DNA of 24,339 bases from Candidatus Moranbacteria bacterium CG_4_8_14_3_um_filter_34_16 (GCA_002782345.1 PFHO01000019.1:1-24339); one strand, 5' to 3'; positions 8,482 through 12,420 are shown, counted from the first letter of the stretch. The notes: generated by a model not told the origin, from the sequence alone. Translations and numbers: made by a program.

Positions 8482-8621
8482 AAAAAAATAAGAGCGGTAA
8501 TACTAATGCATATGGCGGATGCCTAGACATCAAAAAGCGATGAAGGACGTAGCTAGTTGCGAAAAGCTTCGGGGAGGTGCTGAGCAACCTTTGATCCGAA
8601 GATATCCAAATGGGGCAACCC

Positions 8622-8809
8622 AACCCATTCTTCACTTCGTTCAGAATGTAATTTCTAATTTTCAATTTACAATTTTCAAATAAATTCTAATCTCAAATTT
8701 TTAGAAATTGAAACATTGAGAATTATTTATAAAATTAAAAATTTTAAATTAAAAAATTTGTAAAGTTTATTTTAATGGCAAAATTTCTGGATAAAGTGAA
8801 GAATGGGTT
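8622..8809 (+). other. Insert/expansion in 23S helix 9 (188 nt versus ~18 nt in E. coli)
   Basis: Perfect 16-bp basal stem AACCCATTCTTCACTT / AAGTGAAGAATGGGTT, lying between GGGGCAACCC and ATATTAACTGAATTCATAGG; AT-rich heptamer core. Confidence 0.93.
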
Positions 8810-8933
8810 AATATTAACTGAATTCATAGGTTAATATAGCGTACCCGGCGAATTGAAACATCTTAGTAGCCGGAGAAAAAGAAAACTAATGTGATTCCCT
8901 AAGTAGTGGCGAGCGAAAGGGGAAAAGTCTAAA

Positions 8934-9113
8934 CCAGCTTCACCTCACTGCGTTCGGTGAAGAATTCTAGATTTTAAATTCTAAATTTTAAATCAAATCT
9001 AAATTTTCAAATGATTGAATTTTAAAAATTTGTTCATTTGGTCATTGAAAATTCGTTTAAAATTGAAAATTTAAAATTGAAAATTCTGTCCGAGCATAGC
9101 GAGGTGCAGCTGG
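8934..9113 (+). other. Insert/expansion at ~E. coli nt 270 (H15/H16 region), 180 nt
   Basis: CCAGCTTCACCTCACTGCGTTCGG / CCGAGCATAGCGAGGTGCAGCTGG stem between AAACC and GGGGTTGCGAGG; AT-rich heptamer core. Confidence 0.9.
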
Positions 9114-9413
9114 GGTTGCGAGGTAATTTTACTCGTTTAATCGGGGCGATGAATTGTTTGTTAGCAGAACGTTTTGGAAAAAACGACCAAAGAAAGTGAA
9201 AGTCTTGTAAGCGAAAACAAACAACATTCGTGAAATTATTCTCAAGTAGGGCGGGACCGGAGAAATCCCGTTTGAATCTGGGGTCACTATAACTCCAAGA
9301 CTAAATATTTTTGATGATCGATAGCGAACAAGTACCGTGAGGGAAAGGTGAAAAGTATCCCGATGAGGGAGATGAAATAGTATCTGAAACCATATGCTAA
9401 CGAAGAGTAGGAG

Positions 9414-9576
9414 CCGTATTTTTCACTAACGTCCAGAATAAATTTTTAATTTCCAATTTTTAATTTTATAAATAATTTTTAATGTTTTGATTTTATAAAC
9501 ATTAGAAATTAGAAAATTATTTAAAAATTGTAAAAATTAAAAATTATAAAATTCGGAGCGTAAGTGAAGAATACGG
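9414..9576 (+). other. Insert/expansion in 23S helix 25, 163 nt
   Basis: CCGTATTTTTCACT / AGTGAAGAATACGG stem between GTAGGAG and TGACTGCGTGCTTTTTGTA. Confidence 0.93.
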
Positions 9577-10191
9577 TGACTGCGTGCTTTTTGTAGAACG
9601 ATCCAGCGAGTTAGTTTTATACGGCTTGCTTAATCCGTTAATAGCGGAGGAGGCGTAGTGAAAGCGAGCCTTAACCGGCGATTTGTCGTATGGACTAGAC
9701 CCGAAGCCAGGCGAGCTATTTATGAGCAGGGTGAATCTTGAGTAACATCAAGAGGAGGCCCGAACCCACCGGCCGTGCAACACCGGGGGATGACTTGTGA
9801 ATAGAGGAGAAATTCCAATCGAGCTTGGCGATAGCTGGTTCTTCCCGAAATAGCTTGAGGGCTAGCGTTAGGTAACTATCTGTCGGAGGTAGAGCGACTG
9901 AATGAGAATTCGCGGTTCGCCGTAGGTTTCTCAACCAAACTCCGAATTCCGTCAGAACTATCCTAGCAGTCAGAAATCCGGGGCTAAGCTCGGATCTCAA
10001 AAGGGGAAAAGCCCATGATCGCAATCTAAGGTCCCTAATTTATGTTAAGTGGAAAAGGAAGTAAGATTTCTTATACAGCTAGGAGGTTGGCTCAGAGGCA
10101 GCCATCCTTTAAAGAGTGCGTAATAGCTCACTAGTCTAGAGATTTCGCGCCGAAAATGTAACGGGGCTAAAACATAATACCGAAGATGCGG

Positions 10192-10362
10192 GCTACTATT
10201 CTTCACTAACGTTCAGAATGAAATTTTAAAGACTAAATTTAAAATTTTAAATCAAGTCTAAATGAATAAATTTTTAAAATTTAAACATTGGGAAATTTAA
10301 AATTCAATTAAAATTTATAATTTAAAATTGAAAATTTCCGAGCGATAGCGAAGGATGGTAGC
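10192..10362 (+). other. Insert/expansion in 23S helix 45, 171 nt
   Basis: GCTACTATTCTTCACT / AGCGAAGGATGGTAGC stem between CCGAAGATGCGG and GGTAGGGAAGCGTTC. Confidence 0.93.
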
Positions 10363-10881
10363 GGTAGGGAAGCGTTCCATATGCGCTGAAGCGGAATGCG
10401 TGAGCAACCGTGGAGTTTATGGAAGTGAGAATGCTGGAATTAGTAACCGCAATTGGGGTGAGAACCCCCGACACCGAAAGTCTAAGGTTTCCTGGGCAAT
10501 GGCAATCATCTCAGGGTTAGTCGGGCCTAAGGCGAGGCCGAAAGGCGTAGTCGATGGACACACGGTTAATACTCCGTGGCTTTCACGTTATTCGATGGAG
10601 TGACGCATCCTAGTAGTTCTTGCCAATTATTGGATTTTGGTAGGGATATTTAGATGGCGAGACAGGTAAATCCGTTTCGCAATACATCAAGATATTTCTC
10701 TAATTTGTCTTCGGACAGAAAAGAAGAATGAGCAGGGTGCCGGGAAAAGCTTCTAAGATTAGTAGCGTGAGAACCGTACTAAAACCGACACAGGTAGACT
10801 GGGCGAGTAGCCTAAGGTGAACGAGTGAACCTTCGTTAAGGAACTCGGCAAAATAGCGTCCGTAACTTAGGAATAAGGACT

Positions 10882-10967
10882 GCCCGCCGTGTATAGCACA
10901 GAGATTCTAAATTTCAGAAAAATAATTAAAATATAAATTTGGAATTCCCGTGCTATGCGTGGTGGGC
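10882..10967 (+). other. Extended 23S helix 63 with a short AT-rich tip (86 nt)
   Basis: GCCCGCCGTGTATAGCAC / GTGCTATGCGTGGTGGGC stem capped by GATTCTAAATTT...AAATTTGGAATT (about 10903-10947). Confidence 0.8.
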
Positions 10968-11416
10968 CGCAGCTAAAGATATCAAGCGACTGTTTACCAA
11001 AAACACAGGTCTCTGCAAACCCGCAAGGGGATGTATAGGGGCTGACGCCTGACCAGTGCTGGAACGTTAACGGGAGCGGTGCAAGCCAATCCCCGAAGCG
11101 CCAGTGAACGTCAGCGATAACTATAATCGTTCTAAGGTAGCGAAATTCCTTGACAGGTAAGTTCTGTCCCGCATCAAAGGCGTAACGACTTGATAACTGT
11201 CTTAACGAAGAGCTCGGTGAAATTGCAATGACGGTAAAGATGCCGTCGACCTGCAGCAAGACGAAAAGACCCCGTGGAGCTTTACTACAACTTGGTATTG
11301 AGTTTGAGATTATACTGCCTAGAATAGGTGGGAGGCTTTGAAGTTCGTCTTTTGGGATGAACTGAGCCAATAGTGTAATACCACTCTGGATAGTTTTAAA
11401 TTCTAACCCTGGACCG

Positions 11417-11558
11417 TTAAAAGGCAAAAAATTTTCAATTTTCAATTCACGATTTTAAAACAATTTCTAATGATTAAATTTTTTAATTTTAAAATCATTT
11501 AGAAATTGAAAATTGTTTAGAAATTGAAAATTAAAAATTAGAAATTTTTGTTTTTTAC
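11417..11558 (+). other. Insert/expansion in 23S helix 79, ~142 nt
   Basis: Lies within the CCCTGGACCG / CGGTTCGGGG stem preceding GACAGTGCCTGGTGGGTAGTTTGACTGGGG; clearest heptamer array (AATTTTC repeats ... TTAGAAA/TTGAAAA repeats). Confidence 0.93.
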
Positions 11559-12134
11559 CGGTTCGGGGACAGTGCCTGGTGGGTAGTTTGACTGGGGCGG
11601 TCGCCTCCTAAATTGTAACGGAGGCGTTTACAAAGGTAGGCTAGGTCCGGATGGAAATCGGGCTGGTAGTGCAAACGCGCAAGCCTGCTTTACTGCGAGA
11701 CTCATAAGTCAATCAGTCACGAAAGTGGAAGTTAGTGAACCGACCATCGCTTATAGGAGCGTGGAAGATCATCAGATAAAAGTTACCCCGGGGATAACAG
11801 GCTGATCCCTCCCAAGAGTTCACATCGACGGAGGGGTTTGGCACCTCGATGTCGGCTCATCACATCCTGGGGCTGGAGAAGGTCCCAAGGGTTTGGCTGT
11901 TCGCCAATTAAAGTGGTACGCGAGCTGGGTTCAAACCGTCGTGAGACAGGTTGGTCTCCTATCTGCTGTAGGCGTTTATTGCTTGAGAGGATTCTTTCCT
12001 AGTACGAGAGGACCGGAAAGAACAAACCTCTGGTGTACCAGCTGTGGCGCCAGCCGCATTGCTGGGTAGCTAAGTTTGGAAGGGATAACCGCTGAAAGCA
12101 TATAAGCGGGAAGCCCACCTCAAGATTAGGCAAT

Positions 12135-12307
12135 GTCGTGCGAAGCGCGAAAATCCCAATAACCAAAAAACAATAACCAAACAAATTACAATAACTGAAA
12201 TTCAAAATTTCAAACATAATTAAAAAAGTTTGAGATTTGAAAATTGGAATTTGAAATTTATTTGGAATTTGTATCTTGTAATTTGGAATTTACGTGCTTT
12301 GTGCGGC
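12135..12307 (+). other. Insert/expansion in 23S helix 98, 173 nt
   Basis: GTCGTGCGAAGCGCG / CGTGCTTTGTGCGGC stem between CTCAAGATTAGG and CTGGAAGATTACCAGGTTGATAGG; TTGGAAT-type heptamer array at 12230-12289. Confidence 0.92.
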
Positions 12308-12420
12308 TGATTTCCTGGAAGATTACCAGGTTGATAGGTCTCAGGTATAAGCGAAGTGATTCGTTGAGCCAAGAGATACTAATAAATCAAACTTTATCTC
12401 TCTTATTTTTCTCGTTTAGT

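Follow-up and report, generated by a model that had tools for sequence, protein, structure and literature searches.

Hairpin inserts at seven helix tips of a Candidatus Moranbacteria 23S rRNA gene: probable intervening sequences built from mobile palindromic repeats

Introduction

Classical intervening sequences (IVS) of bacterial 23S rRNA genes are located at helices H25 and H45 in Salmonella and Yersinia, at H9 in Rhizobiales, and at H45 in Leptospira, Campylobacter and Coxiella, and some of them carry a 23S_rRNA_IVP gene. In these elements, numbering one or two per gene, the tip of a helix is swapped for a long and mostly non-coding stem-loop with complementary ends, processed by the host RNase III. 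Their occurrence in related strains is sporadic and bears signs of horizontal transfer.

The 'insertion sequences' that CPR bacteria carry within their rRNA genes provide the second point of reference (Brown et al. 2015; PMC9297842, PMC11270868). According to Tsurumaki et al. 2024, 82% of CPR 23S genes contain inserts of at least 100 bp, with as many as 16 in one gene and an average of 1,327 bp (PMC11270868). In their accessible parts, these papers focus on group I/II introns and LAGLIDADG genes, while the short (<200 bp) ORF-less, non-intron inserts located at stem-loop tips or known IVS sites are regarded as probable RNase III IVS (PMC11270868).

Here we analysed a stretch of 24,339 nt from Candidatus Moranbacteria bacterium CG_4_8_14_3_um_filter_34_16 (PFHO01000019.1:1-24339), referred to below as the window. 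With about 1.1 kb of inserts, its 23S rRNA gene is a typical CPR gene. In contrast to the short hairpins of the published papers, which in the accessible portions are presented without sequence families, a link to dispersed repeats or a shared basal motif, the hairpins of this gene display all three.

A 23S rRNA Gene with Seven Hairpin Inserts

Of the 3,911 nt of the 23S rRNA gene (8493-12403, plus strand), 2,808 nt make up the core and 1,103 nt the inserts; the genome (819 kb, 94.8% complete) contains no other 23S gene. The Rfam model LSU_rRNA_bacteria (RF02541) covers the gene from end to end (model positions 1-2925, 2363 bits). Alignment to the E. coli 23S placed the extra segments at E. 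coli positions ~140, ~270-283, 540-552, 1163-1186, 1710-1750, 2210-2214 and 2782-2814, which we take to be, in this order, H9, the H15 site, H25, H45, H63, H79 and H98. In both alignments, all seven are found at the apical ends of surface helices. The initial annotation had reported seven hairpin inserts in a 23S gene of ~3,910 nt; their number, AT-rich character and positions were confirmed by the Rfam model and the E. coli alignment.

In four inserts, the basal stem is an inverted pair of one 22-nt motif, ATTCTGAACGnnAGTGAAGAAT, designated M. Insert 1 at the H9 tip (8622-8809; element proper ~8627-8804) and insert 2 at the H15 site (8934-9113), both on the plus strand like all the others, carry degenerate M-type arms at 8627-8647 and 8785-8804, and at 8937-8962 and 9089-9110, respectively. 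In insert 3 at the H25 tip (9414-9576), motif M is present at 9418-9439 in the minus-strand sense and at 9551-9572 in the plus sense. Insert 4 at the H45 tip (10192-10362) has one copy at 10198-10219, in the minus-strand sense and matching the consensus without a mismatch, and the other at 10335-10356 in the plus sense; between them lies an AT-rich core of ~115 nt that corresponds to a dispersed repeat. Insert 5 is an extended H63 (10882-10967), which adds only ~47 nt relative to E. coli. Its GC-rich basal stem has 18 bp and is of the 'CGTGYATAGCAC' type; stems of this type also occur in the relatives G029 and G035 (H9, H25 and H63) and G011 (H25). Insert 6 at the H79 tip (11417-11558) is a heptamer-repeat palindrome without a GC-rich basal module, and insert 7 (12135-12307) replaces H98, its 5' arm being A/C-rich and its 3' arm G/U-rich, with eight G-U pairs in the fold.

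The 5S rRNA gene (12695-12859, plus strand) contains an extra hairpin of ~45 nt (~12779-12828) in the helix IV region: Rfam RF00001 aligns only to 12695-12778, and the 3' part of the 5S, read from the sequence, resumes past the insert. This hairpin is part of the same pattern of rRNA genes with hairpin extensions. As far as the accessible parts of the reports go, no 5S inserts were found in the published CPR survey at its threshold of at least 100 bp (PMC9297842, PMC11270868). The 16S gene of the genome also contains inserts, three in number.

The repeats are of low complexity and mutually related, which can confuse assemblers, and the gene might be explained as a product of misassembly or as a pseudogene copy without function. 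Such an explanation is highly improbable. The sampled 31-mers of the window are contained to 43-83% in 18 separately assembled DNA runs, and homologous helix-tip inserts are present in many independently assembled relatives. The core is intact, with its full-length Rfam match, and there is no other 23S gene in the genome.

Folding and Coding Content of the Inserts

Each of the seven inserts forms one long hairpin, with a minimum free energy of -33 to -63 kcal/mol and z = -6 to -11 versus shuffled sequences; under dinucleotide-preserving shuffles, z equals -11.1 for insert 3 and -7.8 for insert 7. The G+C content of the insert interiors is 11-22%, versus 47% in the core. Neither group I/II introns nor other Rfam families were found in the inserts at the gathering score or at E<=1, the matches at E<=1 being limited to sub-threshold generic hairpins (miRNA-precursor). 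A group I/II intron reading was therefore ruled out, as the inserts lack a catalytic core detectable by covariance model, even at this permissive threshold. At 86-188 nt, the inserts are also too short for an ORF of at least 60 aa to fit inside one, and the earlier statement that none of them encodes a protein or has a group I/II core stands.

Excision of the inserts might be followed by religation of the flanks through a non-intron route, e.g., an endonuclease combined with an RtcB-type ligase, giving one 2.8-kb 23S molecule. This we consider improbable in view of the missing group I/II core, and bacterial hairpin IVS are not known to be religated. For the majority of CPR inserts, an intron nature was predicted by comparing genes with transcripts (PMC9297842), a comparison that, in the accessible part of that paper, does not separate religation from plain excision for short hairpins.

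Hairpins at the Same Helices in Related Bacteria

In 22 relatives, whose 23S genes measure between 2,753 and 4,449 nt, hairpins occupy the same helices. Seven inserts were counted in both G035 and G027 and six in G011, which belong to the same family and order. The initial annotation regarded the presence of seven such inserts, related and non-coding, in a single gene as exceptional. Within this clade, this view is not tenable, because two relatives also have seven, same-helix hairpins recur among the relatives, and published CPR genes contain up to 16 inserts (PMC11270868); long homologous helices are thus common in the clade and for the most part already described. Some of the relatives' inserts are coding: the H79 insert of G040 encodes PF05635 23S_rRNA_IVP (82.6 bits), and the H25 insert of G030 encodes a GIY-YIG domain (49.4 bits). 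Proteins of the IVS family are also encoded on contigs C45 and C23.

Insert 6 of the studied gene stands in place of a conserved H79 extension of ~100-130 nt found in relatives. That extension, 76-86% identical between genera, appears to be vertically inherited and could be a true retained extension.

Mobility between Helices and Genera

The presence or absence of an insert at a given helix varies across the 22 relatives, and the inserts fall into sequence families whose members turn up at other helices and in other genera. Between the H45 insert and those of G011, a member of another genus, identity amounts to 92% over 165 nt (H15-site insert) and 94% over 146 nt (H9 insert), compared with 84.3% between the 23S cores. 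Since the identity of inserts across genera exceeds that of the rRNA core, the inserts move at the DNA level. Copies of one insert are also encountered inside a single gene: H9 and H15 site in G011 (98% over 144 nt), H25 and a site at E. coli positions ~1400-1600 in G018 (100% over 192 nt), and H15 site and H25 in G008 (95% over 103 nt). The inserts at H45, H25 and the H15 site all match inserts at other helices; for the H25 insert, the match is the H9 insert of G018 (85% identity over 133 nt). The H15-site insert is also matched by the insert at the same site of G011, with 80% identity over 178 nt. The H9 insert is shared with G018 at the same helix and with the same termini (78% identity over 198 nt), versus 81.5% for the core. 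The two are about equally conserved, which could reflect a constraint beyond mere excision. Metagenome contigs scanned with a 27-mer lying just upstream of the H45 insert yielded one contig, insert-free and from a distant relative (78%-83% identity). Mobile hairpin families of this kind are absent from the published CPR insert literature in its accessible parts.

Of 151 genomes from the order, 73 contain homologues of the H45-insert core, an AT-rich sequence with a 7-nt periodicity, at up to 10 or more copies per genome. Among the best 29 core loci, seven are in rRNA genes (L188 being assigned by Rfam) and 22 outside, 19 of the latter overlapping no ORF of at least 100 aa. The core of this insert is a dispersed, mostly intergenic repeat present in about half of the order's sampled genomes. 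Core loci with motif M on both sides are, in all four cases, located in 23S genes, and in the host genome hardly any member of the family lies outside the rRNA genes. BLAST of the inserts against their own genome gave many weak matches at AT-rich places, mostly through shared AATTTTC-type repeats. As full insert copies these were rejected; only 15606-15716 in the window and 7452-7553 in contig C13 resemble free palindromes.

As a short, non-coding and imperfect palindrome that is repeated many times in single genomes of relatives, for the most part within intergenic spacers, and is patchily distributed across genera, the core resembles MITE, REP and ERIC repeats and the Rickettsia palindromic elements. 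It differs from them in its near-confinement to rRNA genes here and in that no transposase partner was identified, a search of the genome for Y1 (IS200/IS605) transposases giving none. A target-site duplication of the MITE type is indistinguishable here from the host helix stem, because the flanks of an insert are the two strands of that helix.

The Basal Motif

Within the host genome, inserts 3 and 4 are the only places with motif M. The same 22 nt are identical to the core of a repeat present at more than 120 loci of very diverse, unrelated bacteria, singly, in convergent pairs or in arrays. No Rfam family exists for this bacteria-wide array, and a literature search with the motif as a string returned unrelated primers only. 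With GTCAT ... GAATC on either side of a small hairpin, the motif resembles in layout the NTS among the NTS/SRM hairpin repeats that Ssn (GIY-YIG) single-strand DNA nucleases recognise (PMC11893778); the CPR copies lack the flanking GTC/GAC. The published degenerate SRM pattern gave three matches in the genome, none of them at the inserts; since it misses the insert termini, the assignment of M as an SRM was rejected. A small YhbQ/Ssn-like GIY-YIG gene is found within 330 nt of the motif in three of the 120 loci examined, one of which, L065, has an array upstream. The host genome contains a single small GIY-YIG ORF, which is truncated (63 aa) and does not adjoin the motif. As for the insertion route, the basal motif might be the target of a GIY-YIG/Ssn-type single-strand nuclease, but this is only a lead.

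Excision or Retention of the Hairpins

Whether such hairpins are excised as IVS or retained as expansions of the ribosome was rightly posed as the central question by the initial annotation. We favour, with a probability of roughly 0.6, the interpretation of the seven segments as IVS of the classical type, built from mobile non-coding palindromic repeats and predicted to be excised, so that the 23S rRNA would be split into about eight pieces. In the pre-rRNA, each insert would form a stacked, interrupted duplex of ~30-70 bp to be cut by RNase III near its base; the insert would be discarded and the ends left unjoined. Stacked, interrupted AU-rich duplexes of this length are standard substrates of RNase III. 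The mature 23S rRNA would consist of up to eight non-covalently held pieces, computed as 129, 124, 300, 615, 519, 449, 576 and 96 nt, in agreement with the sizes estimated earlier. The genome encodes a canonical RNase III (an ORF of 233 aa in contig C28), assigned by the NCBIfam equivalog TIGR02191 with 238.9 bits (cut-off 166) over positions 1-217 of 219. The best of the RNA runs contains only 0.24 of the sampled words, a share compatible with conserved rRNA of other taxa.

The likeness to classical IVS includes the exchange of a helix tip for a mostly non-coding stem-loop with complementary ends, the sporadic occurrence in relatives with signs of horizontal transfer, the presence of a host RNase III, and the IVP-encoding insert at H79 of G040. 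The differences concern the number of inserts (seven here versus one or two per gene), the extra sites at H15, H63, H79 and H98, and the near-pure A/T interiors with their 7-nt periodicity and a core common to a genome-dispersed intergenic repeat. Inserts are, moreover, also present here in the 16S (three) and 5S (one), and excision is in this case a prediction from sequence. To our knowledge, there is little precedent in bacteria for excision at H15, H63, H79 and H98. A 23S rRNA in eight pieces, together with a 16S rRNA possibly in four, would be extreme for a bacterium.

Alternatively, the hairpins may be retained as expansion segments, the 50S subunit then carrying ~1.1 kb of extra AU-rich surface RNA shielded from RNase III by a factor or by the ribosome structure. 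This alternative is possible, yet we judge it unlikely. All the sites are on peripheral helices, and the seven of them presumably coincide with sites of eukaryotic LSU expansion segments. Selection for structure at the RNA level also fits retention: among 87 inserts from 22 genomes, 73 fold better than their reverse complement (Wilcoxon p = 5e-13), with 534 G-U pairs on the rRNA-sense strand versus 221 on the reverse complement, in a test that took in some flanking core-helix bases. The better fold on the rRNA-sense strand shows that the structure of the transcript is under selection; this bias speaks for the preferred IVS reading but would fit a retained, structured expansion equally well. 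The seemingly vertical H79 extension of the relatives and the orthologous H9 insert, about as conserved as the core, are further arguments for retention, as is the extension of the 5S, given that retained 5S expansions are known (PMC7812874, in its accessible part).

Retention has against it the canonical RNase III encoded in the genome, of which such AU-rich duplexes would be substrates. The elements are mobile, variably present in close relatives and common to intergenic repeats, and therefore fit selfish DNA that is tolerated because it is removed. Classical IVS-protein ORF cassettes are located at the same helices in relatives. Furthermore, CPR inserts are reported to be absent from transcripts in the accessible parts of two papers (PMC11270868, PMC9297842), which cite Brown et al. 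2015 for their removal. Expansion segments of eukaryotic and Asgard archaeal LSU rRNA share with the inserts the ribosome-surface sites, but they stay in the rRNA, are inherited vertically and do not represent copies of mobile repeats. Retention is the less likely reading here. The full scenario, in which ~1.1 kb of extra AU-rich LSU RNA and the 16S and 5S extensions are all kept at the sites of eukaryotic expansion segments and were created by mobile palindromic repeats, is more doubtful still.

Conclusions

Insert-swollen CPR 23S genes are already textbook knowledge. What is new is the description of the published "uncharacterised short inserts" as mobile palindromic repeats, which are common to intergenic DNA, jump between helix tips and genera, and have a conserved basal stem in rRNA genes. 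On the practical side, primers and probes directed at rRNA, as well as filters on its length, fail in these lineages because of such inserts. If the inserts are excised, as we prefer to think, the LSU rRNA of this organism would be in about eight pieces, near the bacterial record. If they are kept, they would show one way in which a selfish repeat becomes an expansion segment and offer a live example of the origin of such segments.

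Position and Structure of the 23S rRNA Inserts

The Rfam model of the bacterial LSU covers window positions 8493–12403 from its first to its last position (2363 bits), giving a 23S gene of 3,911 nt versus 2,904 nt in E. coli. The genome (819 kb in 76 contigs, 94.8% complete), which its size and relatives identify as that of a CPR/Patescibacteria organism, has a single 23S copy, and the runs containing the window sequence are groundwater and aquifer metagenomes. The alignment of the window 23S to that of E. coli (locus L003) revealed additional sequence at seven points: 8622–8809 (insert 1, E. 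coli position ~140), 8934–9113 (insert 2, ~270–283), 9414–9576 (insert 3, 540–552), 10192–10362 (insert 4, 1163–1186), 10882–10967 (insert 5, 1710–1750, a modest gain of 47 nt), 11417–11558 (insert 6, 2210–2214), and 12135–12307 (insert 7, 2782–2814). In this order, we take the sites to be H9, the H15 site (where the Rfam consensus has a small hairpin), H25, H45, H63, H79, and H98. Both the model match and the alignment bear out the seven intervals assigned in the initial annotation. Upstream, ~1.08 kb without a long ORF (7415–8492) separates an 854-aa minus-strand ORF (4850–7414) from the 23S start, and ~15 nt just 5′ of the gene are complementary to the first ~15 nt 3′ of it, as expected of an RNase III processing stem.

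All seven inserts are predicted to form one long hairpin each, with MFE values of −33 to −63 kcal/mol and z of −6 to −11; dinucleotide-preserving shuffles, applied to two inserts, gave z = −11.1 and −7.8. The G+C content is 11%–22% in the insert interiors versus 47% in the 2,808-nt 23S core. The folds, alignments, and G+C content show that the seven self-complementary AT-rich segments are real, and an artefact is highly improbable. No group I/II intron or other Rfam family matched the inserts even at E ≤ 1, and none is long enough to hold a gene, which upholds the first reading that they contain neither a protein nor a group I/II core.

Occurrence of Inserts in Related Genomes

Full-length 23S genes from 22 genomes within the family and order of this bacterium, with their inserts mapped onto E. 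coli, range from 2,753 to 4,449 nt. Hairpins of 80–200 nt occur at H45, H9, H25, H63, H98, and the H15 site in many of these relatives, and the non-intron inserts number seven per 23S in two genomes (G035 and G027) and six in a third (G011). Group-I-type inserts containing LAGLIDADG genes are present as well in several relatives, at E. coli positions 1927–1937, 2258–2268, and 2585–2599. A published survey reports that 82% of 348 CPR 23S genes contain inserts of at least 100 bp, as many as 16 in one gene and 1,327 bp on average (PMC11270868). Given these relatives and the published CPR surveys, the view that seven inserts in one gene are exceptional does not hold for this clade; a 1-kb enlargement of 23S is ordinary for CPR, and seven hairpins are the upper end of the known distribution.

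At H79, almost all of the 22 relatives have an extension, of +84 to +162 nt except for a larger one in two genomes and a shorter one in another. Nearly all 23S genes of the order (L004–L023, E. coli 2200–2226) have an extension of ~100–130 nt there, with 76%–86% identity between genera; judged by its sequence, this extension has the appearance of vertical inheritance and may represent a genuine expansion specific to the lineage. In the window, a heptamer-repeat palindrome has taken the place of this conserved extension at H79.

Mobility Between Helices and Genera

When the inserts of the relatives were compared all against all, the window H45 insert shared 92% identity (165 nt) with the H15-site insert and 94% (146 nt) with the H9 insert of G011. 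This genome belongs to a different genus, and its 23S core shares only 84.3% identity with that of the window. The similarity in the alignment of the window H45 insert with G011 is bounded exactly by the element ends, the host helix being unrelated on either side. Near-identical copies occupy different helices of one 23S in G011 (98% over 144 nt) and in G008 (95% over 103 nt). A 192-nt hairpin element present twice in the 23S of G018 (L028; H25 and E. coli ~1400–1600) with 100% identity was either duplicated very recently or misassembled. The window H25 insert matches the H9 insert of G018 (85% over 133 nt), and the window H9 insert has an ortholog with the same termini at that H9. The copies at other helices and in other genera, together with the sharp element ends, point to mobile DNA elements landing in apical loops of rRNA helices; as far as sequence comparison goes, the inserts are not helices grown in place.

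The H45 insert was also searched against 151 genomes of the order, and its ~115-nt AT-rich core (query ~30–146) was found in 73 of them, representing 42 of 77 genera, often in 5–10 or more copies per genome. Among the best 29 core loci, 22 lie outside rRNA genes, with 19 of these overlapping no ORF of at least 100 aa, and the remaining seven lie inside 23S or 16S genes. The core is 7-nt periodic (lag-7 autocorrelation of 0.52 vs 0.37 in shuffles). In the window, a free-standing AT-rich AATTTTC/GAAAATT palindrome without M-type arms (the M motif is described below) fills the spacer 15606–15716 between the ORFs 15182–15616 and 15696–16658, and a similar palindrome is found elsewhere in the genome (C13:7452–7553).

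Basal Stems of the Inserts

Inserts 1–4 and one 16S insert have common termini. The termini of insert 3, like those of insert 4, are formed by a 22-nt motif, M (ATTCTGAACGnnAGTGAAGAAT), in two inverted copies; the 5′ copy reads on the minus strand and the 3′ copy on the plus strand. The genome has M (≤3 mismatches) at these four ends only. In the sample of loci taken from the order, four elements have M on both flanks, all of them in 23S genes, and no intergenic copy does. This specificity of the M stem for rRNA copies suggests a signal for a trans-acting factor. A basal module of another kind, GC-rich and of the CGTGYATAGCAC type, is found in inserts 5 and 7 and also at H9, H25, and H63 of the relatives G029 and G035; insert 6 is without a GC-rich basal module.

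Scanning one genome per species, the M 22-mer was found in at least 120 loci (~2 expected by chance), with Chloroflexota, Bacteroidota, Clostridia, Nitrospina, Gammaproteobacteria, Saccharibacteria, and others among the matches listed. Its bacteria-wide form is the 28-nt TGTCATTCTGAACGnnAGTGAAGAATCT (loci L038–L157), which among these matches is found as a single copy, as a convergent pair (42 of 142 instances), or as part of an array; we found no Rfam family for it and no paper quoting its sequence. In 3 of the 120 loci listed, the motif has a small YhbQ/Ssn-like GIY-YIG gene no more than 330 nt away, and in a Nitrospina locus (L065, 600–1490) an array directly precedes a 94-aa GIY-YIG gene. 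M is similar to the NTS/SRM repeats of Ssn single-strand nucleases (PMC11893778), but it does not fit the degenerate pattern published there, its CPR copies are without the flanking GTC, and the only GIY-YIG ORF of this genome is truncated and away from M. The connection to Ssn is thus a lead, not a classification. The truncated ORF (63 aa, PF01541, 33.4 bits; C61:280–468, L037) lies between GC-rich hairpins unrelated to M.

The 16S gene (C70:17487–19354, L002; 1,868 nt) is unlinked from the 23S and, being on a separate contig, indicates a split rRNA operon. It has hairpin inserts at E. coli 16S positions ~136–248 (+67 nt), 431–485 (+119 nt), and 1123–1180 (+170 nt), two of the three with degenerate M-like basal arms. 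The 5S gene (window 12695–12859) has a ~45-nt AT-rich hairpin extension at about 12779–12828, in the helix IV region, because of which the Rfam alignment covers only 12695–12778; the 3′ portion picks up again beyond the hairpin. All three rRNA genes have therefore been colonised.

Relation to Classical IVSs and Fate of the Inserts

As a link to classical intervening sequences (IVSs), relatives have protein-coding cassettes at helices that bear hairpins in the window. The H79 insert of G040 (+470 nt) codes for a clear 23S_rRNA_IVP protein (PF05635, 82.6 bits), and the H25 insert of G030 (+294 nt) codes for a GIY-YIG domain (49.4 bits) with 16-bp perfect inverted repeats on both sides. The genome under study has a short IVP-like ORF (C23:2035–2483, L035; PF05635, sub-threshold at 26.6 bits) with AATTTTC heptamers, the unit that fills the rRNA inserts, arrayed in inverted orientation on either side. 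The ORF-less hairpins look like non-autonomous members of this cassette population. The genome has another four-helix-bundle gene at C45:12026–12403, which is bAvd-like (62.6 bits).

We predict, with a probability of roughly 60%, that the inserts are cut out of the 23S transcript and the flanks are not religated, which would leave the 23S in eight pieces; if all seven are excised, these would measure 129, 124, 300, 615, 519, 449, 576, and 96 nt, in agreement with the sizes first proposed. Excision is favoured by the canonical, full-length RNase III encoded in the genome (TIGR02191, 238.9 bits), the long and lightly interrupted duplex predicted for each insert, the variable presence and selfish appearance of the elements, and the limitation of the M stem to rRNA copies. 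It is also favoured by literature cited in PMC11270868 and PMC9297842, which puts CPR rRNA inserts as absent from transcripts. Excision followed by religation of the flanks appears improbable. The sense strand folds better than the antisense in 73 of 87 inserts (G–U pairs 534 vs 221), which argues for selection acting on the transcript and fits retention in the mature rRNA as well as excision; set against the arguments for excision, retention is a less likely though credible outcome. The window inserts are probably a CPR instance of hairpin-type IVSs, a class already noted in print, which the present analysis resolves into families of mobile repeats that have a conserved basal module.
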